From a virus (Duplodnaviria; Heunggongvirae; Uroviricota; Caudoviricetes): a DNA stretch of 28,397 nucleotides. The stretch lies in IMG/VR virus record IMGVR_UViG_2663762992_000009, one strand, 5' to 3'. Under the pieces are notes generated by a model that saw only the letters and a program-made list of their open reading frames with translations, was not told the DNA's origin and ran no database searches. Position numbers and translations under genes: made by a program. Positions 738 through 27,197 of the stretch are shown here, in pieces. Every line of letters begins with the position of its first letter. The first letter of the stretch is position 1.

Positions 738-2476
738 ATAAATATGGGGTCATTAAAGAAATCACTGATATCGCCGTCGCCGTCATCTTCACAGGATCCT
801 GCAACACCAATTGCCATGGCACCGGACACCACGCCATCAATACGCCCATTGCTGCGACGCTTGCTGAATACACGGTTTCCGCTTTTGTCCTCCTCTATAA
901 CGGCATTGGCCGCACACCAGCGAAGGCAGGGGTTGAGTACGATGTTTATTTTTTTATCCATGATGAGTTGTTCAAACAACTCAATGGAATGCGGCATCCA
1001 CAGTCCGGATTTGGCGGACTTGCCGAATCCCTGGCCGTGCGGAATCAGTGGGATGTTTACACCTTCATCATCCAGTTCCGGCAAAAGGTAATCAATGTGG
1101 TAACTGTCGAACGCCACCTTACGGATGTCGAACATTGCAGCAAGTGTTGCCAGACGTTTTGCCACAAAGCCATAATCAATTGCAGCACCTGGCGGCGCGT
1201 GTACATACCCCTTCTTCAGCCAGACGTCATAAGGAACACGATCCACCCTTGCGCGATCGAAAAGTGTATCGCGCGGCGTCCAGAACTCAGTAAGCAACGC
1301 ATTGCTTCCAGGGAAATACAGAGAAAGAGAAGTGAGATCTCTTTTGCCGGAAAGATCCAGTCCTCCGTAACAAATCTGCCCCCGGAACTCTTCAGGATCG
1401 AATTTTTTTTCGCATGCCATCCAGGCATCACTGCTAATCCATGGATTTTCAGCATCAACCCACTGACAGAAATTAAGGCGTCGTACAATGCTCTCTTTGG
1501 ACGGAATACCGCGGGCATCATCAACCTGTTCCCGTAAATAACTGTCCTCAAATGTATGCCCCATGGAAGGGTTCGCTTTTGGCCAGCAGGATTCATCCTG
1601 GAAGGGATCATCTCTTTCATCAAGGGAACAAATGAAAGAGAAAAATGCATCATTATCCAGTTGTCCGGCTGCGACTTTTTGTCCGTACCGGTGATAGTCA
1701 TAGCAGACGCTGGTTTTGTCATGACCACTGTTAGTTATCATGAAAATCAGCGCCTGACGCCTGCCTTTTGTACCAGCCCGCATCATTTCAACCACAATGT
1801 TGCTTTTGTGCTCATGGATTTCATCAATCAAGGCACAATGTGGTCGTGGGCCTGACTGCCCGTCATCAGAACTAATCGGGCGGAAAAATGATCCCGTCTG
1901 CAAAAATGCCAGATTCCACTCTTTGCCCGCCCCTCCTGATTTGCTGATACGTTGTGCCAGCGCCGGTGATTGATCCACCATCGCCACCGCATCACGAAAC
2001 AACACCATAGCCTGGTCTTTTTTCGTCGCCGCAGCATACACCTCGGCCCTGGGCTCCTTATCCGCAGTCATGCAGTACAGGCCAACCCCTGCCGCCAGAG
2101 GGGATTTACCTGATCCCTTGCCTGATTCCACATAAGCGGTACGAAAGCGGCGCGCCCCGTTCCGCCGTTTCCATCCAAAAATGGATCCCACAATAAAGCA
2201 CTGCCAGGGCAACAGAATGAAGGGTTCTCCTTCAAACTCCCCACCGTTAAGCTTCAGTACCTTCGCAAAAAAATCAATCGCGCGTAGTGCTGCTTCTGTA
2301 TCCCATGACAAGCCGCGCTTATGCCCAAATTCAAGATCGCGCAAATGACGTTTACAGGCATTACGAATATCTGGTCCGGCAATTTTCTTACCGGTACCCA
2401 CATCCATTGCATACTGCGTGGCTGGATCAACCGAAGAACTGGTTGAACGGATCTTCGTCTTTTTCTCCACCATCAA
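734..2476 (-). CDS. terminase large subunit
   Basis: 580-aa ORF with a Walker A-like ATPase motif (GKGSGKS) and a C-terminal nuclease-like region, length typical of TerL; follows the small terminase and precedes the portal. Confidence 0.9.
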   Translation of the reverse strand: MMVEKKTKIRSTSSSVDPATQYAMDVGTGKKIAGPDIRNACKRHLRDLEFGHKRGLSWDTEAALRAIDFFAKVLKLNGGEFEGEPFILLPWQCFIVGSIFGWKRRNGARRFRTAYVESGKGSGKSPLAAGVGLYCMTADKEPRAEVYAAATKKDQAMVLFRDAVAMVDQSPALAQRISKSGGAGKEWNLAFLQTGSFFRPISSDDGQSGPRPHCALIDEIHEHKSNIVVEMMRAGTKGRRQALIFMITNSGHDKTSVCYDYHRYGQKVAAGQLDNDAFFSFICSLDERDDPFQDESCWPKANPSMGHTFEDSYLREQVDDARGIPSKESIVRRLNFCQWVDAENPWISSDAWMACEKKFDPEEFRGQICYGGLDLSGKRDLTSLSLYFPGSNALLTEFWTPRDTLFDRARVDRVPYDVWLKKGYVHAPPGAAIDYGFVAKRLATLAAMFDIRKVAFDSYHIDYLLPELDDEGVNIPLIPHGQGFGKSAKSGLWMPHSIELFEQLIMDKKINIVLNPCLRWCAANAVIEEDKSGNRVFSKRRSNGRIDGVVSGAMAIGVAGSCEDDGDGDISDFFNDPIFM

Positions 2477-2891
2477 CTTTTACCTTCGTTCTGGCGGCCG
2501 GGGTCAGACCGAATTCAACCAGATAACTTTTAAAACGGCGGTCAGCGTCTGCCAGCATGGCGACAGCAGGATGCGGTTTTATCAGAAATCCACCATCTGT
2601 CTGTACCGTATAGGTTCTGCCTTCCACTGCGACAGTGTCACGTAACTGAAGGATATCGGCGTAGATATCACAGAGGCGCTCCAGTGCCAGTCCGTCAGCT
2701 ACCGTCATCACTCCCATCCCATCCAGCAGTACGGTCAGTTTTCCCCAGGCAACCTTTCCCCAGTCGGTCAGGTGCGGGGGCGGCGACGGTATTTCGCGTG
2801 AGGGCAACGGCTCTTTGTCATTGAGTTTTCGCTTGCTTGGGTTGCCGGTTACCGCTTTCAGATGGGACGGTTTCGGACGTCTCCCTGCCAT
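2427..2891 (-). CDS. terminase small subunit (P27-like family)
   Basis: ORF overlaps the TerL start; basic N-terminus (RRPKPSHLK) typical of small terminases. Start placed at the ATG at 2891, preceded by GGGAGG with 8-nt spacing; the ORF-track start at 2900 is a GTG. Confidence 0.75.
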   Translation of the reverse strand: MAGRRPKPSHLKAVTGNPSKRKLNDKEPLPSREIPSPPPHLTDWGKVAWGKLTVLLDGMGVMTVADGLALERLCDIYADILQLRDTVAVEGRTYTVQTDGGFLIKPHPAVAMLADADRRFKSYLVEFGLTPAARTKVKVDGGEKDEDPFNQFFG

Positions 2892-3105
2892 GCCGGGCAC
2901 CTCCCAATAAAACTACTGCATTAAATCACATATGTATTTTAATACAGTAGCTTTGCTGTTTTCATCATTTTCTTATATATCAATACACTGAAGTAATTCG
3001 AGGTTGTTTTTTAACCAAAAAACAAGCCAAAAAAAAACTTTTCATTTCGCGGTTGTACACAGAAAGGAGAAGCGGGGGTCATTTACTGCAAAGGTATTTA
3101 AGTTT

Positions 3106-3477: not shown

Positions 3478-3711
3478 TCAGTGCGGACACCGTTCAATCC
3501 TCACTAAGCCGTAAAGCATCTGCCTCTTCACTTCGCCGTTCTCTATGGTCGCGTGGCCATATTCATCACATGCAACAGCGATTACTTCACCTTTCTCATC
3601 ATCAGCAGTGAGCGCGCGCTTAACATCAACACCATCAAGATAGACAGTGTACCGCTCTACTCTGATATCAATCTTCCTGCCGGGATCATCATCTAATACA
3701 GTGAGGCGCAT
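3478..3711 (-). CDS. small hypothetical phage protein
   Basis: 77-aa ORF with normal GC content, same strand as neighbours and tightly spaced before the HNH gene; no family recognised. Confidence 0.45.
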   Translation of the reverse strand: MRLTVLDDDPGRKIDIRVERYTVYLDGVDVKRALTADDEKGEVIAVACDEYGHATIENGEVKRQMLYGLVRIERCPH

Positions 3712-4267
3712 TCCCCCCTCCTTGTTATTTATACGCGTGCAATGCGACTATGATTGCCGCACGTCCCTTGTCGGCATGGACGTTTAGCACGTGCTGGCAT
3801 CGGCGTTGCCCTGTTTGTTGGATAGAAATCATGTTGTACTCGGAGAGAAAAACGGAAATGGCAAATAGTGGACAATATTCATAAATAGAGAGAATCCACA
3901 CGGTCGCCGCCCCGTAACAGGTTGGATCGCATAACAGGCCCCATCAAATGAGAATGAATATCGATTATACTAATTAATGCTTAGAACAGGATCATATACC
4001 TGTATCAGGTCAGTCCACTCTTCACCTAAACGTGCAGATGTGTTAATCCGTCTCCCTGCTTAGCACCACTCTTTTGGTGATATACCCGTTTTGGCATAGT
4101 CGGCGAGAGACTGGTGTTGCAGCACTGTCCAGTCCTGTTTTACCATAAACCCCCTAGTTTTATCTTTTAATTAATAGATATTAGTAAGATGAATCAATGA
4201 TGTGCTCAGAGCAAAGCACATCCTGCGTTGCTTTTAGTGCCATTTAACCTATAGAGAGATATGACGC

Positions 4268-7467: not shown

Positions 7468-7543
<76 letters not shown>

Positions 7544-7546
7544 TTT

Positions 7547-7623
7547 TGGTGGCCCTTGCTGGACTTGAACCAGCGACCTGGCGATTATGAGTCGCACGCT
7601 CTGACCAACTGAGCTAAAGGGCC
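7547..7623 (-). tRNA. tRNA with CAU anticodon (Ile2-lysidine type or Met)
   Basis: Full cloverleaf on the minus strand: acceptor GGCCCTT/AAGGGCC, D-arm GCTC/GAGC, anticodon loop CTCATAA, T-arm GCTGG-TTCAAGT-CCAGC, CCA end; closely resembles the E. coli ileX sequence as I recall it. Confidence 0.85.
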
Positions 7624-8963: not shown

Positions 8964-9073
8964 GGAGGTAACGTATAAACGGCAGGTGCTTTAGATCAAG
9001 CTTTTTATCATGTCGGCGAAATGAAAAAGGGCTCACCGAAGTGAGCCCTGAATTACCGCCGTTTTCAATTTGC

Positions 9074-9166
9074 CGCAGTGCCGGGTGCCTCCCGATGGTA
9101 TTAACCGCAACGTCAACAGTGGAAGCGAAACCTGACGATGCCCCTACGCTAGTGGGATTCACTGCA
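9074..9166. repeat. repeat unit C (more diverged copy)
   Basis: 5' end gcagtgccgg and 3' end cgctagtgggattcactgca match units A and B with a few substitutions. Confidence 0.6.
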
Positions 9167-9372
9167 ACGGGGGGAACCTATTACCCGCAGACAGCGGCTG
9201 ACAAGATATTTATTTTGCTGAAATGCCAAAATGTGAATCTGCGCATATGAAATTAAACAGAACTTAAACAATTGCAGATACGAACTTGATAGGTTTATGA
9301 AGAAATTACTACGGTCCTCAGGCTTCCCCCTATGAAGCACTTAAGCCTCTTACCTTTTCCAATTGTGATTTT

Positions 9373-14733: not shown

Positions 14734-15651
14734 TCACCCCCTGAAACCCGGTGGAATGGTTGTGTCCGGTGGCGAAATATCCTGAATCCTGGTCGGGCTG
14801 TCGCGGCCACGATTGCCTCCCCGGTCCTGGTCTTTTGCCAGCCAGCCGGTGATAAATTTCCTGATGCCTCGGGCGGTTTTTCGTCGTCGTCGTTCGCTGA
14901 GCAGCCATCCGCGCTGATTACGCAGTGCCTGCCGGACGTCGACCGCCGGATACAGCGTCTCAAACTCGACAACCATCGATTCGGTCACGGAAAATTCAGA
15001 ACCGTCGTTGAGCGGAAGCCGAATAAACTCAGGGTCATCAGGCGGTGTTGATGGCACACCAGCGCTCAGAGGCCGACGCTCAGGTCCGACATGGGCTGGT
15101 CCGGTACCATCGGGCAAACTCGCACCCTGTGACCCGAAATTTTCATCCAGTTGCGTGGGGCTGATTTTTTCAGCTCCGCGCAAGAGGTTTTGATCTTTTA
15201 GATCTGTTTCTTTATCTTTATCTGGATCTTTATTAGTTGCCTTTGTGTTGGGCTCCTGTTCAAACACAGAACCAACACCTGTTGAACATGTGTTATTTTC
15301 GCTGGCAGATTGTGCTTCCTTCCTGTTCCTTCTTGACTGAACAGATGCTTTTCCTGCTGCAGACTTTTTCGCTAAGGTTTCCCTGACCGAATGAAGATCA
15401 TCTTCAATACGCTTGTGAACCCACTCCGTGCCGTTATCAGTAAAAAATTCTCTCAACGACTCTTCTACGGCTCCCCAACGCTCACTGCTAACCCGGGCAA
15501 TCTTTGCCAGCCTGTTTTTCGGTATAGCCCTTCCGGTCTGCCAGTAATTGAACATCAGCAGTAAATAGGCCCCATGCTCCTCGGTTGAAAGATGCATTGT
15601 GTCAGCCAAGTAATCAGCGATATAAAGCTGCATGTATGGAAGTGCCGCCAT
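14734..15651 (-). CDS. replication initiation protein with N-terminal DUF1376 (YdaU-like) domain
   Basis: N-terminus YMQLYIADYLADTMHLSTEEHGAYLLLMFNYWQ is characteristic of DUF1376; long acidic/disordered middle; directly precedes the DnaC-like gene; GAGG SD upstream. Confidence 0.8.
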   Translation of the reverse strand: MAALPYMQLYIADYLADTMHLSTEEHGAYLLLMFNYWQTGRAIPKNRLAKIARVSSERWGAVEESLREFFTDNGTEWVHKRIEDDLHSVRETLAKKSAAGKASVQSRRNRKEAQSASENNTCSTGVGSVFEQEPNTKATNKDPDKDKETDLKDQNLLRGAEKISPTQLDENFGSQGASLPDGTGPAHVGPERRPLSAGVPSTPPDDPEFIRLPLNDGSEFSVTESMVVEFETLYPAVDVRQALRNQRGWLLSERRRRKTARGIRKFITGWLAKDQDRGGNRGRDSPTRIQDISPPDTTIPPGFRG

Positions 15652-16277: not shown

Positions 16278-16781
16278 TTACAACAGATGGTCACTGGTCA
16301 TGTCTCTGATACTGCTGGCGGTAACTGCTTCGTAGCGTCTGTATTGCTTGTATGGCTTCATCACACTCCCGTTCAAAATCCGTAACAGGCGCACCAAGAA
16401 GTACCGCATTTGCCACTGCGGTTTTTTTAAAAACTGTGTAAGCAGATACTCGATGCTATGCCCTGCCGTGACCTGCTTATGCAGCTCCGGCGCGTGTATC
16501 CGGATTGCTTCAAGAACTGCGGGGATTAGCGCTGAAAACTTTTCGCGGTGCTCTGTCGTTTCGAGTTTTCGCCATCGCTGAAAAATGTTTATACGATTCC
16601 GGCGCCATGCTTCGTAATCCACCGTTCCGTCATCACGTTCTATACGGTGGACAGCAATATCTGGTCTCACTTGCTGTTCCAGAAAGGCGCGGGTGATCAA
16701 CTGTGTTGCACTTTCCTGACTCATTGCGGGTGTAGCCAGCCAGGATGACAGTGCTTTGTTGGCATCCTCAGGGGTGATCAT
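16278..16781 (-). CDS. YdaT-like protein (CII-analogue regulator / putative toxin family of Rac prophage)
   Basis: 167 aa; segment IFQRWRKLETTEHREKFSALIPAVLEAIRIHAPELHKQV resembles the conserved core of E. coli YdaT as I recall it; immediately downstream of the cro-like gene with an overlapping start; GAGGTG SD. Confidence 0.7.
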   Translation of the reverse strand: MITPEDANKALSSWLATPAMSQESATQLITRAFLEQQVRPDIAVHRIERDDGTVDYEAWRRNRINIFQRWRKLETTEHREKFSALIPAVLEAIRIHAPELHKQVTAGHSIEYLLTQFLKKPQWQMRYFLVRLLRILNGSVMKPYKQYRRYEAVTASSIRDMTSDHLL

Positions 16782-17145: not shown

Positions 17146-17580
17146 ATGAAAAAAAACAACGAATCAGCTCAATACGAGACTTCAGCCAGAAGGATCAAAC
17201 AGGTCCTGTATGAATTAGGCTGGAACCAAAGTCGCCTGGCTAAAGAAATTGGGGTTTCAGCTCAGGCGGTACAACAATGGGCAAAAGGTACTTCTCGACC
17301 GAATGGCCCTAATCTAACTCGACTTTCTGAAGTCACAAGCAAACCTGAAGCATGGTTTTTCAGTGATGTCAGCGGGTTATCTGAGAGTCATGCAGTACAT
17401 TTACCAGAAAGTAATGGTTCAGACTTTCTCCCGCTTAGCGATGAAGAGATCAGACTGCTAACTGTCTTCAGGAAATTTCCTTCTGTAGAGAGTAAAAACA
17501 TGCTGTTAGCGTTTGAGATGAGACTTCAGGAGATAAAAGAATACTATTCCAAATACGCTAATCCCAATAAAAACCGATAG
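17146..17580 (+). CDS. CI-like prophage repressor, HTH_XRE type, short form without a LexA-like peptidase S24 domain
   Basis: 144 aa; N-terminal HTH (NQSRLAKEIGVSAQAVQQWAKG); the C-terminal ~60 aa is too short for an S24 domain; divergently arranged to the cro-like gene. Confidence 0.8.
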   Translation: MKKNNESAQYETSARRIKQVLYELGWNQSRLAKEIGVSAQAVQQWAKGTSRPNGPNLTRLSEVTSKPEAWFFSDVSGLSESHAVHLPESNGSDFLPLSDEEIRLLTVFRKFPSVESKNMLLAFEMRLQEIKEYYSKYANPNKNR

Positions 17581-18383: not shown

Positions 18384-18648
18384 AGTGAAAATCATAACAG
18401 TGCTGTGTGTAGTCTTTGACGGTATCCGTTAACAAAGTTTTCCTGGCTGATACCGTCCTTTTTCAGAATGAATTTTATAGTGTGGTGAATGCGGCTCAGC
18501 GCACGTGACACAGTTAAAAACATGTCAGTCCTTCATCTGTTGATGGGTGGGAATGTTCGTCGGCAGTAATGGTTAGCTGTTTACTGTCACCGGGAGGCAC
18601 CCGGCACCACACTCCAAAATTCATTGTGTTACCAGAATGGAGACAACT

Positions 18649-18939
18649 ATGCCAGTTACACCTGAAATAAAACAAAACTCAGACTGGATGCGGCGCAACA
18701 AATCTGAACAAACCGCCCCTGCCTGTAAGCCTGGTATTATTCAGAAAATATTAAGTACGCTGAACCAGAAAGGTGACCCCACCCTTATTCCTTGCGCTTA
18801 TTGTGGCAAAGCCATCAACAAAAGTGAAATCGTGGAGCATGAACTTATTTATATAAACGGAAGTCAGCTCGCAAGAAAAACGAATCTATATTGCAGTAAA
18901 CGATGTGCCGAATATGACCAGATGGCACATGAATCTTAA
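18649..18939 (+). CDS. small Cys-rich hypothetical protein (zinc-binding-like)
   Basis: ATG at 18649 with a GGAG SD (6-nt spacing); motifs CAYCGK and CSKRC. Confidence 0.5.
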   Translation: MPVTPEIKQNSDWMRRNKSEQTAPACKPGIIQKILSTLNQKGDPTLIPCAYCGKAINKSEIVEHELIYINGSQLARKTNLYCSKRCAEYDQMAHES

Positions 18940-19022: not shown

Positions 19023-19355
19023 ATGAGAAAGACACCGAGCGAATCAGTAATTAATGAACTCAACAAACGAGCAAAGGAAATTCTTGAACTGTGTGAGAAA
19101 AACGATATTCCGGTTGTTTTTTGTTACTCATTCGAATTAAGCCGGAATGAAAATGGATATTTAAACAACAAATCCATTACAGCTTATATCAATAAAGAGA
19201 AAGGAGCATGGGATTCAACAATAGCCGCAGCCAGCATGATCCTGCGGATGAAAGAGGTTCCTGAGATAGCTATCCATGCAATGGCTGAAATGGCTGCGAT
19301 TTGTGACATCACACGGACTGCATCCGGTACTTCAGATGAAAAAAGCCTGCACTAA
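19023..19355 (+). CDS. hypothetical protein (110 aa)
   Basis: ORF in operon orientation upstream of the recE-like gene; no family recognised. Confidence 0.45.
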   Translation: MRKTPSESVINELNKRAKEILELCEKNDIPVVFCYSFELSRNENGYLNNKSITAYINKEKGAWDSTIAAASMILRMKEVPEIAIHAMAEMAAICDITRTASGTSDEKSLH

Positions 19356-19491: not shown

Positions 19492-22400
19492 ATGAGTGAT
19501 AAGAAAGAAGATTTCGCGCTGTACTGCCCTGTTAAAAATGAAGAGGCCAGGAAACGACTTGGAATAAAAGCAGGCTTTTTCTGGGCAACTGCAAAAAAAT
19601 TATCTGTGGCTGTTTCCCGCTGTATTGCTGCTATGGACGATAAGGGGTATGACGAGGATGACTTTAAAAAACCTGTTCGCGTCAATTACCCCGTCGTTAA
19701 CGACCTGCCTCCTGAAGGCGTGTTTGATACTGAATTCTGCAACCGTTACGAAAAAGGCGGTCAGGGTGGTATCACAATGGTACTTATCCCCGGCGCTGTT
19801 CCCGCCGATCCAATGCACGGCGAAGTCGGCAGGGATATTACTGGCAGCGGCAACGCAGACGCAGACGCAGACGCAGGCACAGACGCAGATAATGCTACGG
19901 ACAATACCGAAAGTACGCTCCTCCCCGCTTACGCTTATAACGTCAACGGCGAACTGATGTCGGAAGTGGAAAAGGAAATGTCGCAGCCTGTTTCAGGACT
20001 AAGTCTGCCACTTCGTTTCCTGGCGCAATTTAATAACGACTGTCCACAACATCAGGTCACACCAGAGCGTTTACGGGAGTTAAACCTTACAGAGCAGGAT
20101 CCCGACAGTCGTACCGGAACTATTTTACTCGCCATCCAGAACAGAAAGGAACAGCTCGAAAAACTGGACACAAAAAACCTGCATCCTTTGGCGACGTACA
20201 TTGAAAAAGTATTTCCCTGCGGAAAACGACCACAACTCAATGATGTCATTAATTTTATCGATGCCGTACTTAATACAGACTATGTCGATCGCGGACTGCT
20301 CGTTAAGGAATGGTGCGAAGGTCGTCGAGCCGCGTGCGTAGAGCATGTAACAGCACCAGAAACCAGGCGTGATAATACTGTGTCAGCGCAGACGGAAACG
20401 AAGACTACTGTCACTGAACGTCCGCGTCGTAGCGAAAAAACAACGCACCGGACGATTAATTATGAAATTGGCTGTGGCTTATATGACGGCGAGCTGGATC
20501 TTCATAACCTGAGGGAACCGCTGGATTTTGCGAAACGCATTATGGCGAAAGACCGGGAAGACTGGAAAGTATGGTCAGACACAATCAACTGCATCCCTGG
20601 CATCCTGAATTATGACCGCCAGACCATTATCGAGATGGTACGAAAAGCCCCCACCCCGACTTATCACAGTGCTGCACTGCGCCGCGAGTGGTGTGATTCT
20701 TATCTGCGAGCCTGGGGACGGCTCGATCCCGACTGGAGCCAGAGCGCCGCTGTCAAAACAGCAGAGTCACATGAAGATGTCTGTGCTGATATCAGGAAGG
20801 CCGGAAAGCGCCTGCGTGAAATTGAATCAGGAGTTGGGATCAATGAAGAAAAACAGACGACACAGGGAGAACTGGCAGATGAACCGTCAGCGCCTGAATC
20901 AGTGGAACCGGCTTCAGCTGAACATCAGCAGAATACGCAGCCGCTGGATGCTGAGGCATCTGTAAACACCACTAAAACGGAATTCGATGTATTTGCTCTA
21001 ATGCAGAACTCATCTGTTTATGGCAGCAAAAACACACAGGAGACGACCAGCAATGTGCAGGTTCAGGACGCTGAAAAGGATGAAAAACAGGCTGGTACTG
21101 AAGTTCAGTCAGGCGAAAGCAGTCTGGGAACTGGTGAAGAGTCAGATACCAGACAGCAAGCCGATGTAAACCAGAATACGGATTCTGTCGCCCAAAATAG
21201 CGATTCTGTAAACCAAACTGAACCAGTTTTGGCACAAACCGAGCCAGAAGTGCAATCTGACGAACCGGCTGTTGTTTACCCCGCTTACTTCGAACCAGGC
21301 CGCTATGAGGGTCTGCCGAACGAGGTTTATCACGCAGCCAACGGTATCAGCTCGACAATGGTAAAAGATGCGCGGGTGAGCCTGATGTACTTCAATGCGC
21401 GCCACGTAGAGAAAACCATTATCAAAGAACGCTCTCCTGTACTGGATATCGGTAACCTGGTGCATGCACTGGCGTTGCAGCCAGATCAACTCGATGAAGA
21501 ATTCAGCATTGAACCCGTAATTCCGGAAGGTGCATTTACCACCACGGCAACGATCCGCGCGTTTATTGATGAGCACAACGCCAGCCTGACAGCGATGCTG
21601 TCAGCCGACGACATCAAAGCACTGTTAGAAGAGTACAACGCCACCCTTCCTGCTCAGGTTCAGTTAGGTGGTTCCGTGGAGGAAACTGGCCAGAGCTATA
21701 TGTCGCTGCCAGAAGAGTTCCAGCGTCTCGAAGCGGACAAGAAGCAGACCGCAGCGGCAATGAAAGCCTGCATCAAGGAATACAACACCACACTGCCTGC
21801 ACAAGTGAAAATCAGCGGTAGCCGTGATGCGTTACTCGAGCAGTTAGCAATCATCAATCCTGACCTGGTGGCGCAGGAAGCGCAGAAGCCCGCGCAGTTG
21901 AAAGTGTCCGGCACCAAAGCGGATCTGATTCAGGCCGTGAAGTCTGTTAATCCTGATGCCATCTTCGCCGACGAACTGCTGGATGCGTGGCGCGAAAATA
22001 CGCAAGGGAAAGTGCTGGTCACCCGCCAGCAACTGAGCACTGCACTGAGCATTCAGAAAGCCCTGCTCGAGCACCCTACAGCGGGCAAGCTACTGACACA
22101 CCCGAGCCGCGCCGTTGAGGTGAGCTACTTCGGTTTTGACGACGAAACCGGTCTGGAAGTCCGCGTTCGTCCCGACCTTGAGATCGATCTTGACGGGGTG
22201 CGCATCGGCGCCGACCTGAAAACCATCAGCATGTGGAACATTAAACAGGAAGGTCTGCGCGCCAAACTGCACCGCGAAATCATCGACCGTGACTACCACC
22301 TGAGTGCTGCCATGTATTGCGAGACCGCAGCGCTTGACCAGTTCTTCTGGATTTTCGTCAACAAAGACGAGAACTACCACTGGATCGCCATCATCGAGGC

Positions 22401-22596
22401 ATCCGCCGAACTTCTGGAACTGGGCATGCTGGAGTACCGCAAGGCAATGCGCGCCATCGCTACCGGCTTTGACACTGGCGAGTGGCCAGCGCCGATCACC
22501 TCCGGTAACTCCGATGAAATAGCCGACTACACCGACGAACTGAACGATTTCGACACACGCCGCCTTGAAGCGCTGCGTACGGCACAAGGGGAATGA
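19492..22596 (+). CDS. recE: RecE-like exonuclease VIII (C-terminal PD-(D/E)XK nuclease domain, long disordered N-terminal/central region)
   Basis: 1034 aa; C-terminal region carries the catalytic-type pattern RPDLEIDLDGVRIGADLKT; large acidic, low-complexity central region; followed by a translationally coupled annealing-protein-like gene; position matches Rac-type recE-recT order. Confidence 0.75.
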   Translation: MSDKKEDFALYCPVKNEEARKRLGIKAGFFWATAKKLSVAVSRCIAAMDDKGYDEDDFKKPVRVNYPVVNDLPPEGVFDTEFCNRYEKGGQGGITMVLIPGAVPADPMHGEVGRDITGSGNADADADAGTDADNATDNTESTLLPAYAYNVNGELMSEVEKEMSQPVSGLSLPLRFLAQFNNDCPQHQVTPERLRELNLTEQDPDSRTGTILLAIQNRKEQLEKLDTKNLHPLATYIEKVFPCGKRPQLNDVINFIDAVLNTDYVDRGLLVKEWCEGRRAACVEHVTAPETRRDNTVSAQTETKTTVTERPRRSEKTTHRTINYEIGCGLYDGELDLHNLREPLDFAKRIMAKDREDWKVWSDTINCIPGILNYDRQTIIEMVRKAPTPTYHSAALRREWCDSYLRAWGRLDPDWSQSAAVKTAESHEDVCADIRKAGKRLREIESGVGINEEKQTTQGELADEPSAPESVEPASAEHQQNTQPLDAEASVNTTKTEFDVFALMQNSSVYGSKNTQETTSNVQVQDAEKDEKQAGTEVQSGESSLGTGEESDTRQQADVNQNTDSVAQNSDSVNQTEPVLAQTEPEVQSDEPAVVYPAYFEPGRYEGLPNEVYHAANGISSTMVKDARVSLMYFNARHVEKTIIKERSPVLDIGNLVHALALQPDQLDEEFSIEPVIPEGAFTTTATIRAFIDEHNASLTAMLSADDIKALLEEYNATLPAQVQLGGSVEETGQSYMSLPEEFQRLEADKKQTAAAMKACIKEYNTTLPAQVKISGSRDALLEQLAIINPDLVAQEAQKPAQLKVSGTKADLIQAVKSVNPDAIFADELLDAWRENTQGKVLVTRQQLSTALSIQKALLEHPTAGKLLTHPSRAVEVSYFGFDDETGLEVRVRPDLEIDLDGVRIGADLKTISMWNIKQEGLRAKLHREIIDRDYHLSAAMYCETAALDQFFWIFVNKDENYHWIAIIEASAELLELGMLEYRKAMRAIATGFDTGEWPAPITSGNSDEIADYTDELNDFDTRRLEALRTAQGE
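19855..19890 (+). repeat. in-frame hexanucleotide tandem repeat (GCAGAC)n within the recE-like gene
   Basis: Six consecutive 6-nt units (gcagac x3, gcaggc, acagac, gcagat) encoding ADADADAGTDAD. Confidence 0.9.
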
Positions 22597-23648
22597 TGAT
22601 GGAAAAAAACAACGTAGCAGTAATTGAACATAACGAACCGAGCACGATGAATAACACATCCCTGCTTCTGAATATCGACGTCATGGATCGCATGATGAAG
22701 CTAGCAGAGGTGATGTCTCAGGGCGTCGCGACAGTACCGAAACATCTACAGGGAAGACCTTCTGATTGTCTGGCAATAATCATGCAGGCCGCTCGTTGGG
22801 GTATGGACCCATTTGTTGTAGGACAGAAAACACACCTGGTTAACGGGGCTCTGGGTTATGAAGCACAGCTTTACAACGCTTTAATCACCAGCTCCAAAGT
22901 TGTACACGGGCGCTTTAAATACGAGTACGGCGGTGAGTGGGAAAAAATTGTTGGCAAAAAAGACGGGCGTGATGAATCAGGTTTGTTTGTTCGTGTCGGA
23001 GCAGTTCTTCGAGGCGAGACAGAGGTGACCTGGGGAGAGCCAATTTACCTTGCTGATATTACTACGCGAAATTCCCCTTTGTGGAAAACCGCACCTAAAC
23101 AGCAAATAGGTTATTTGGCCGTTAAGTATTGGGCGAGGACTTACTGCCCTGAAGTCACAATGGGTGTTTATGACAGAGAAGATCTGGAACAACGAACAGA
23201 GCGCGAAATTAACCCTGCACCAATCCAACGAATGAGCGCTGCTGAAATCGCAGGTGACACCGTCACAACCACACAAAACACGCAGGAATCGTCAGTAAAT
23301 ATCGACTCACTGGCTGATGTTTTCCGCGAACGCATCAATGCTACGCAGGATGTAGACAGCGCCAAAGTAGTCCGGGCTGATATCGAAAGCGCGAAGGTCA
23401 CACTCGGTTCGGCTCTGTTCACCGAACTGAAAAACAAGGCAGTGAAGCGCTATTACCTGGTAGATCACCGCAACAAAGTTGAAGCCGCGATCAACTCCCT
23501 GCCGTCTCCGGACGAACCGAATGCAGCAGAACGGTTCGGAGAAGTTGAGCGAGCTCTTGCTGCGGCCAAACGTCACCTGGGTGACGAGCTGCACGATCAG
23601 TTCAGCATCACCCTGGCAGATATGAAACCGGAATACATCACTGCATAA
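22593..23648 (+). CDS. putative single-strand annealing protein partner of RecE (RecT/Red-beta superfamily, assigned mainly by synteny)
   Basis: Start overlaps the recE-like stop (ATGATGATGG, coupled translation); 351 aa with a globular N-terminal part and an acidic C-terminal tail; no specific motif identified by eye. Confidence 0.55.
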   Translation: MMMEKNNVAVIEHNEPSTMNNTSLLLNIDVMDRMMKLAEVMSQGVATVPKHLQGRPSDCLAIIMQAARWGMDPFVVGQKTHLVNGALGYEAQLYNALITSSKVVHGRFKYEYGGEWEKIVGKKDGRDESGLFVRVGAVLRGETEVTWGEPIYLADITTRNSPLWKTAPKQQIGYLAVKYWARTYCPEVTMGVYDREDLEQRTEREINPAPIQRMSAAEIAGDTVTTTQNTQESSVNIDSLADVFRERINATQDVDSAKVVRADIESAKVTLGSALFTELKNKAVKRYYLVDHRNKVEAAINSLPSPDEPNAAERFGEVERALAAAKRHLGDELHDQFSITLADMKPEYITA

Positions 23649-25949: not shown

Positions 25950-27197
25950 ATGGCTGCTTTACCAACAGGTGTAGAAATCAGAGGTAGTAGCATCTGTATC
26001 TGGTTTATGTACAGAGGAAAACGTTGCCGCGAAACTCTCAGAGGATGGAGCATAACACCTGCTAATATCAGAAAAGCAGGTAATCTGCGCTCAATTATCG
26101 TCAGTGAAATCAACATGGGCGAGTTCGACTACCAGACTCGCTTCCCATCCTCCAAAAAAGCAATAAAAATTGTCACTACGGTTTCAGTCAGAACTCTAGG
26201 CGAACTCTGTGATCTGTGGCTGTCGATAAAAGAGACTGAACTGGCGGCTAACACCTTGCGCAAAACCAGCTCGCAGCTCGACACGCTGAAATTCATTATC
26301 AATAAAAACACGCCACTTTCGACGATTCGCCACAGCGACATTCTGAACTACCGCAACGAGCTGCTAAACGGAGAGACAAATTACCGAAACGCCACGAGAG
26401 GAAATAAAACCGGCCGTACCGCGCGCACGGTTGATAATTACATTTCCCTGCTCTGCTCCCTGCTCCGTTTTGCGCAGCACTCAGGGTTTATTAAGCACAA
26501 ACCTTTTGAGGGGGTTCGGAAGCTGCAAAAAGCCCGGATCAAACCGGACCCGCTCACAAAGCAGGAGTTTGCACAGTTGATGGAAGCAGAATACGGCCAG
26601 AGCCAGAATCTGTGGAAATTTGCAGTATATACGGGCCTTCGTCATGGTGAACTTGCTGCGCTGGCGTGGGAGGATGTGGATCTCGAGGCGGGAACAGTCA
26701 GCGTGTGCCGTAATCTGACCATTATCGGTACCTTCGGGCCGCCAAAGACAGATGCAGGCTACCGGACAATAAAGCTGCTGGAACCTGCGTTGGAAGCGTT
26801 GAAAGCACAGCGTGAACTTACCGCCCTCCAGCCAAAGTCAAAAATCGTTTTTAACCACCGTGAATATGGAAGGACAGAAACCCAGCGCGTGCACTTTGTT
26901 TTCATGCCAAGGATGCGTAAAGGCGAGCAAAAACCGTATTACAGCGTATCGAGCATCGGGCACCGTTGGAACGCTGCCGTAAAACGTGCTGGCATTCGTC
27001 GTCGGAATCCATATCACACACGGCATACTTTCGCCTGCTGGTTGTTATCCGCCGGTGCAAACCCGTCGTTTATCGCAAGTCAGATGGGACATGAAAATGC
27101 ACAAATGGTTTATGAAGTATATGCAACATGGATGGATGATATGAACAAAGATCAAATTGAACTAATTAATAGAAACTTACTAAACTCTTTATTTTAA
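25950..27197 (+). CDS. int: tyrosine site-specific integrase (lambda/Rac IntR-like)
   Basis: 415 aa; N-terminal arm-binding-like region (LPTGVEIRGSSICIWFMYRGKRCRETL); catalytic signature GLRHGELAAL ... HTRHTFACWLLSAGANPSFIASQMGH ... VY (R, H-x-x-R, Y). Confidence 0.9.
   Translation: MAALPTGVEIRGSSICIWFMYRGKRCRETLRGWSITPANIRKAGNLRSIIVSEINMGEFDYQTRFPSSKKAIKIVTTVSVRTLGELCDLWLSIKETELAANTLRKTSSQLDTLKFIINKNTPLSTIRHSDILNYRNELLNGETNYRNATRGNKTGRTARTVDNYISLLCSLLRFAQHSGFIKHKPFEGVRKLQKARIKPDPLTKQEFAQLMEAEYGQSQNLWKFAVYTGLRHGELAALAWEDVDLEAGTVSVCRNLTIIGTFGPPKTDAGYRTIKLLEPALEALKAQRELTALQPKSKIVFNHREYGRTETQRVHFVFMPRMRKGEQKPYYSVSSIGHRWNAAVKRAGIRRRNPYHTRHTFACWLLSAGANPSFIASQMGHENAQMVYEVYATWMDDMNKDQIELINRNLLNSLF

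Follow-up and report, generated by a model that had tools for sequence, protein, structure and literature searches.

The PD-(D/E)XK nucleases include a RecE family, which a survey of the superfamily equates with PF12684 and to which the structures 3h4r and 3l0a belong (PMC3424549). The recombination module of the Gifsy-1 class pairs such a nuclease with an annealing protein and is without an anti-RecBCD gene (PMC12315714). The gene analyzed here is a recE-family gene located at 19492..22596 (+ strand) of a 28,397-nucleotide (nt) stretch of DNA, the IMG/VR virus record IMGVR_UViG_2663762992_000009 (Duplodnaviria; Heunggongvirae; Uroviricota; Caudoviricetes), which at its full length is referred to as the window. 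The gene is an ordinary RecE-family prophage recombination exonuclease that has already been catalogued. Its product is very probably a RecE of the Gifsy-1/HK225 type (exonuclease VIII family), carried by a lambdoid prophage, co-expressed with RecT and showing the three peculiarities proposed for it: an array of repeated units, an in-frame hexanucleotide tract and an acidic central linker.

The best known relative is the RecE of the Escherichia coli K-12 Rac prophage (3H4R, residues 606-866), which resembles the window RecE in its RPD...D-x-K-T motif, in a homologous N-terminal region of ~590 amino acids (aa), over which PRK09709 aligns to aa 1-591 and which contains Exonuc_VIII, and in its pairing with RecT. 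The two proteins differ in length (866 aa in K-12 and 1034 aa in the window), their nuclease domains are only 22% identical, and the site that holds a 160-aa array in the window protein is occupied in K-12 RecE by one short helix of ~20 aa. Closer to the window gene are the recE genes of HK225, mEp237, Gifsy-1/Gifsy-2, SPN3UB and several Klebsiella prophages, which are collinear with nt 1500-3105 of the window recE, insertion included, at 77-82% nucleotide identity; compared with these HK225/Gifsy-type genes, the 5' half of the window gene is a different mosaic segment. Short DUF3799/RecE nucleases with two SAP motifs (e.g. P0248, 399 aa, PF02037 plus PF12684) belong to the same family and carry an insertion at the same site, although they are without the ~600-aa N-terminal region and have two canonical SAP motifs where the window protein has four elaborated units.

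The open reading frame begins with ATG, ends with the TGA at 22594-22596 and encodes 1034 aa. The reading of the gene as a RecE-like exonuclease, made in the initial annotation from the sequence, was borne out by several independent comparisons. PHROG 607 (labelled 'exonuclease VII', i.e. VIII) matched aa 1-1030 with an E of 3.2e-291, the Pfam family Exonuc_VIII (PF06630) matched aa 54-194 (19651..20073, + strand) with an E of 2e-10 and 41.3 bits (cut-off 25), and PF12684/DUF3799 matched aa 835-1001 with 45 bits against a cut-off of 26, as it did all 47 of the aligned relatives. Together with the PRK09709 alignment, the PF06630 score places the protein in the RecE/exonuclease VIII family by its N-terminal region. 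An identical 1034-aa protein (P0121, found in 14 E. coli contigs) is deposited under the name 'PD-(D/E)XK nuclease-like domain-containing protein', and thousands of Salmonella homologs with 54-81% protein identity keep the full architecture. Immediately downstream lies recT, encoding a single-strand annealing protein of 351 aa (22593..23648, + strand; PF03837, E 5e-31; PHROG 561, E 1.6e-140), whose ATG shares 4 nt (ATGA) with the recE stop; this arrangement is also present in the eight comparison loci L001-L008. Weighing against the assignment, the protein failed the equivalog test for K-12 exonuclease VIII (NCBIfam NF007259), with 588 bits against a required 1269 and a match limited to aa 1-591. 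Because this score is far under the cut-off, the window RecE is to be regarded as a member of the family and not as the K-12 equivalog. Neither the phage collection nor the complete E. coli genomes contained a record that covered at least 80% of the gene, so that recE is a mosaic.

The nuclease domain is split in two. The 3H4R sequence, that of the E. coli RecE crystal structure, aligns only to aa 611-706 and aa 838-1003 of the window protein, and invariant residues lie on both sides of the gap; therefore, the repeats are a ~160-aa insertion (aa 681-840) that interrupts this domain. The N-terminal part of the domain, aa 598-680 (21283..21531, + strand), aligns to residues 5-99 of the 3H4R chain, has a fixed length of 83 aa in 121 of 121 sequences, is modelled with a predicted local distance difference test score (pLDDT) >89 and contains Y613, H614, G654 and H658, which lie upstream of the repeats and are invariant across the family. 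The catalytic core, aa 841-1003 (22012..22500, + strand), contains E876, R893-P-D895 (with D895 at 22174-22176), D908-L-K910-T (22213-22224) and Y935-H936, the sequence reading RPD at 893-895 and DLKT at 908-911. The residues E876, D895, D908 and K910 are invariant in alignments of 130 and of 47 sequences, as is Y935. The C-terminal tail that follows, aa 1004-1034 (22501..22593, + strand), has a pLDDT of 44-75, ends in a helix (DFDTRRLEALRTA) and varies in length from 0 to 31 aa among homologs.

An AlphaFold model of aa 590-1034, built with the 130-sequence alignment that includes distant short homologs, reached a mean pLDDT of 92.4 and a predicted template modelling score (pTM) of 0.79, and a Foldseek search with it retrieved 3h4r with an E of 1.1e-8, as expected of a RecE nuclease fold. 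A first model, based on a 21-sequence alignment, was discarded: its mean pLDDT was 60.8, its core was <50 and it was poor outside the insertion, and its Foldseek matches, all with E >0.2, were meaningless. The C-terminal ~405 aa (about aa 598-1003) are a RecE-fold PD-(D/E)XK nuclease whose catalytic set is intact. The C-terminal ~250 aa, singled out in the initial annotation as a candidate for exonuclease activity on its own, proved too short: the domain spans about 405 aa and has invariant residues upstream of the insertion, so a 'C-terminal 250 aa' construct leaves them out. In a Gifsy-1-type RecE, constructs truncated after the pattern of K-12 RecE(606-866), or to the 'last 250 aa', would sever the nuclease domain. 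By analogy with what is established for the E. coli Rac RecE and RecT, the window RecE would degrade the 5'-ended strand of double-stranded DNA ends and would pass the 3' single strand on to RecT, to be recombined by annealing.

The insertion (aa 681-840; 21532..22011, + strand) consists of SAP-like helix-loop-helix units, U1 at 21544-21597, U2 at 21604-21702, U3 at 21751-21855 and U4 at 21859-21948. The repeats were evaluated by Smith-Waterman comparison against 2000 shuffles. The motif EYN.TLPAQV...GS, which had been reported to occur twice, was recovered as aa 703-727 against aa 752-776 (..IKALLEEYNATLPAQVQLGGS / ..MKACIKEYNTTLPAQVKISGS; score 73, 0/2000 shuffles), and the related segment said to follow it as aa 768-792 against aa 799-823 (PAQVKISGSRDALLEQLAIINPD / PAQLKVSGTKADLIQAVKSVNPD; score 63, 0/2000 shuffles). 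A further copy, missed by the first reading, was found at aa 687-702 (IRAFIDEHNASL) against aa 707-722, with a score of 40 and again 0/2000 shuffles. A self-BLASTP of the RecE protein gave no off-diagonal match. The alignments support the repeated motifs, and the units are kept in all close homologs. The nucleotide identity between units is only 45-60%, which indicates that the unit duplications are old; a recent internal duplication in the window gene was rejected on the same grounds. The tandem small domains that had been suggested are real as small helical units, but they lie inside the PD-(D/E)XK domain rather than ahead of it. In the model they comprise eight helices with a pLDDT of 92-97 (685-698, 705-718, 729-737, 754-767, 778-788, 790-797, 809-819 and 826-835), and the pairs 754-767/778-788 and 790-797/809-819, joined by loops of 10-11 residues, have the helix-extended loop-helix shape of ~35 aa that is expected of a SAP motif.

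When the insertion was compared by phmmer with 1.84 billion representatives, only 83 hits were obtained, nearly all of them RecE-like proteins of 800-1100 aa or their fragments, together with a few stand-alone nucleases of 370-450 aa. A homolog search seeded with P0198 found RecE-family nucleases of ~255-300 aa without the insertion and of 370-450 aa with it, and in one branch of the latter class the insertion is composed of two textbook SAP motifs (e.g. LLAMVAEINAGRKAKLSTSGTKDELVARI). The Pfam SAP family (PF02037; gathering threshold 23.9 bits) was matched by unit 1 of P0248 with 26.4 bits and by the insertion of P0169 with 26.3 bits; among the 47 family members, matches at E <=0.01 were obtained for SAP in six, for SAP_new25 in two and for Thymopoietin in one. 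An hhalign comparison of aa 755-824, represented by 39 relatives, with the two-SAP insertion of the short homologs gave a probability of 94% and an E of 1.4e-7 and aligned the first SAP motif to U3 and the second to U4, so that homology was found for U3 and U4 only. Four observations count against describing the window insertion as SAP-derived. It falls below the Pfam SAP threshold, with 16.6 bits and an E of 0.006; the match covers only profile positions 19-33 (KVSGTKADLIQAV), the second half of the motif; taken unit by unit, U4 alone gave 16 bits and U1-U3 alone gave no hit; and a hidden Markov model of 12 canonical SAP units from the short homologs scored a marginal 2.7 bits on the window protein, where the 99th percentile of shuffles was 0.5 and their maximum 10.6. 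The units are therefore described as SAP-like: U3 is a complete helix-loop-helix, U4 retains chiefly the latter half of the motif, and U1 and U2 each repeat the first helix next to a partner that has diverged.

Several repetitive proteins were set aside during these searches. P0176 (3580 aa) matched the insertion over 35 stretches with an E of 2.9e-26 and was not taken as a homolog of it, as the score probably built up over weak helical repeats; true distant homology is the less favoured explanation. The repeats of P0176, ~73 aa long, read TIAEVQAMIDSVNTS...YIDANPDLF and recall U3 (AAMKACIKEYNTT...LAIINPDLV). P0207 and P0213, repetitive proteins with marginal matches (E about 1e-4), were likewise not taken as homologs of the insertion.

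SAP domains generally bind DNA and occur in DNA-processing proteins such as FAN1 and Ku70. The SAP-like array would most likely hold duplex DNA near the nuclease and so raise its affinity or processivity, as suggested by analogy. FAN1 offers an analogy, in that a SAP helix-loop-helix accompanies a PD-(D/E)XK-type nuclease whose substrates are DNA ends or flaps, but it belongs to an unrelated subfamily (VRR-nuc), its SAP is a separate domain and not an insertion in the nuclease fold, and there is no evidence of common descent. The inserted helical array could instead be an element of protein-protein interaction or oligomerisation, which docks RecT or a host factor or stabilises a RecE ring. The confident model of the array, with its pTM of 0.79, suggests a defined packing rather than free flopping, and both the missing SAP hits of U1 and U2 and the weak SAP signal of the window protein as a whole fit this explanation. 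We consider it unlikely, because U3 and U4 share homology with the SAP units in short homologs, one of which passes the Pfam SAP threshold, because SAP generally binds DNA and accompanies a PD-(D/E)XK nuclease in FAN1, and because natural variants in which units are missing or duplicated persist, which argues against a precisely fitted interface.

The insertion has a length of 160-161 aa in 115 of 120 close homologs, and the exceptions are described as whole-unit events. In P0032 a 20-aa unit (ALLSADDIKALLEEYNATLP) is tandemly duplicated, the 60-nt copies being identical at 59 of 60 positions; in P0119 a stretch of 49 aa is missing, exactly between the two EYNATLP copies; and P0105, P0107 and P0108 share the loss of 31 aa spanning U1 and the first helix of U2. 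A 9-aa deletion was found in the insertion of P0076, and the 1341-aa relative P0169 contains both half-motifs in additional copies. The array evolves by the duplication and deletion of whole units. It is conceivable, though we propose it only tentatively, that the four-unit array is an accessory handle for duplex DNA which is remodelled by repeat-mediated duplication and deletion and tunes how processive prophage RecET systems are or which substrates they prefer. If this is true, variation of the array would affect the usefulness of RecET for recombineering. The natural variants with gained or lost units could provide a test set for an effect of the array on DNA binding or on recombineering efficiency. 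Literature searches on RecE with SAP returned only unrelated eukaryotic papers, among them one on FAN1 (PMC4201288), with no description of a SAP array among the papers searched. Beyond annotation the finding is of little weight, and the SAP-array insertion and its unit insertions and deletions are a modest detail.

The second feature is an in-frame hexanucleotide repeat at 19855..19890 (+ strand; aa 122-133). It had been described as a (GCAGAC)n tract coding for an (Ala-Asp)n run; it does lie in frame and encodes ADADADAGTDAD, but it is not a pure (GCAGAC)6, as three perfect units (19855-19872) are followed by three degenerate ones, GCAGGC, ACAGAC and GCAGAT. Tandem Repeats Finder (TRF) reported a period of 6, 6.2 copies, 87% matches and a score of 60, which places the tract among the top-scoring arrays of the window; a 21-nt array at 21165-21217 outscores it with 64. 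By our own estimate, the number of perfect 18-nt hexamer triplets expected in 28 kb of random sequence is ~0.002.

To define the alleles of the tract, we compared the loci coding for other members of the same 90%-identity protein cluster. Relative to the window, two loci coding for P0123 (L001 and L002; 1036 aa) have four perfect units (+6 nt) and one coding for P0132 (L003; 1032 aa) has two (-6 nt). Across 6.1 kb, only 0-1 substitutions separate these three loci from the window, so that the 6-nt unit is essentially their sole difference from it. In two loci coding for P0122 (L004 and L005; 1038 aa) the tract has two units, and these loci also show eight substitutions and, farther along, an 18-nt tandem duplication. 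The Salmonella Muenchen homolog (L006; 81% identical) reads (GCAGAC)4 plus GCAGAT, and another E. coli allele (L007) reads GACGAC(GCAGAC)4. The alleles recur in roughly 1, 14, 10-16 and at least 48 contigs, the last three figures being those of P0121 (14), P0123 (10-16) and P0122 (at least 48), and all tract alleles give full-length in-frame proteins (1032, 1034 and 1036 aa).

The number of units is therefore polymorphic among near-identical strains, with two, three and four units on the same 6.1-kb background, and copy number also varies across homologs, where an invariant repeat length would have spoken against slippage. Length variation by slippage that preserves the frame, as originally suggested, is confirmed by these data: 2-, 3- and 4-unit alleles on identical backgrounds indicate recent in-frame slippage, while the presence of only three perfect units makes the tract a weak slippage substrate. 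Units of 6 nt are gained and lost by occasional replication slippage, which adds or removes Ala-Asp and leaves the frame intact. The tract did not behave as a phase-variable one, in which a change of length switches expression or frame, given that the unit is of 6 nt and all alleles are in frame. The segment in which it lies, aa 101-150, is the least conserved of the protein, with 40% mean identity compared with 87% for aa 1-100 (120 homologs), and this position within a poorly conserved linker gives no sign of a functional switch. Most homologs, among them the more distant ones, have a non-repetitive D/T-rich linker in its place, most commonly 46 aa long over the same alignment span, and the Ala-Asp microsatellite is limited to the closest relatives. 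The variation is thus most likely a neutral polymorphism of linker length and not a switch, a reading against which it must be held that its neutrality is assumed.

A different reading would make the tract a functional tuning element, similar to a contingency locus, in which the number of units alters the activity, stability or partner binding of RecE and selection keeps the variability. In its favour, copy number does differ among otherwise identical loci, and at least three lineages carry the repeat in expanded form. We hold it to be improbable all the same, since an in-frame 6-nt unit allows no on/off switching, the tract has only 2-4 perfect units with interrupting variants where classical hypermutable tracts are far longer, it sits in the least conserved segment (40% identity), most homologs have a non-repetitive linker of similar length instead, and the contig counts of the alleles match occasional events fixed in lineages. 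That the length differences are artefacts of assembly or sequencing is very improbable: the comparison loci do all come from draft or automated assemblies of public runs, but the perfect repeat of merely 12-24 nt is well inside one short read, the differences are always whole 6-nt units, and each allele was found in several independent samples and sources, a recurrence which makes assembly error unlikely. The Ala-Asp repeat is a clean small case of recent in-frame slippage within a gene of a prophage and a possible minor typing marker.

The third feature is the acidic, low-complexity linker rich in Q, S, T and N at aa 453-597 (20848..21282, + strand). The acidic and Q/S/T-rich character noted earlier for 20850-21280 was confirmed by its composition, with 20% D+E, 4% K+R and 40% Q+S+T+N, the latter amounting to 22% in the whole protein. 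Among 121 sequences the length of the linker ranges between 116 and 211 aa, in 20 classes, while the flanking segments of the nuclease are fixed in the same sequences at 83 aa and about 162 aa. The 21-nt array mentioned above (21165-21217) is an imperfect tandem repeat within this linker, which also contains, after ~21017, the polymorphic site of the 18-nt tandem duplication that adds YGDSSA in P0001/P0122 (L004/L005). Composition and length variability both point to a flexible linker, and we infer from the sequences that aa 453-597 form a flexible spacer of variable length that joins the N-terminal region to the nuclease domain.

At its other end the protein has a conserved N-terminal module, aa 1-100 (19492..19791, + strand), which is the segment with 87% mean identity to the 120 homologs. 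Nucleotides 13-300 of recE match hundreds of complete E. coli genomes at ~79-81% nucleotide identity, and the genes so matched are annotated variously as RecE, 'exonuclease' and '3'-5' exonuclease'. One of them, at 3989-6430 of L009, is an 813-aa '3'-5' exonuclease' gene that shares the module and is located in a prophage region of the Qin/DicB type. The module seems to be common to different types of prophage nuclease, and perhaps it is a common adaptor.

The remaining genes of the window are those of a prophage, with a large terminase (734-2476, - strand), a replication protein (14734-15651, - strand), a CII-like activator (16278-16781, - strand), a repressor (17146-17580), an integrase (25950-27197), a DUF977 DNA-binding protein and an Ead/Ea22-like protein. 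From these neighbours the window is a lambdoid prophage, and recE-recT lies in its early-left operon, pointing towards int. Upstream of recE lies a pair of small genes, 18637-18939 and 19023-19355 (both + strand), which encode a YdaE-like protein with a C-terminal Cys-rich motif (PHROG 6751) and a PHROG 2016 protein; their order is kept in L001-L005, and the shorter loci L006-L008 reach only the adjacent gene of 110-111 aa.

Several deposited members of the protein cluster (P0124, P0125, P0129, P0131 and P0134) represent just the N- or the C-terminal part, over 484-595 aa, and some of them have frameshifted tails (e.g. PITSGIRASAMAFC), which suggests that in some strains recE carries a split or a frameshift, or that it was miscalled. 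In the Salmonella locus that encodes P0032 (L008; region 3503-3840), the called recT product is 385 aa long and its start lies 38 nt within recE, which reflects either a different choice of start in the gene call or a genuine extension at the N terminus. Rfam and tRNA scans gave no match within the recE gene. Elsewhere in the window, a tRNA with the anticodon CAT was found at 7547-7623 (- strand) in the late region of the prophage, with a second, partial tRNA-like match at 7479-7536 (- strand), and the gammaproteobacterial small RNA STnc100 of Rfam was located at 9018-9195 (- strand; 66 bits against a gathering threshold of 47), upstream of the lysis-gene cluster.

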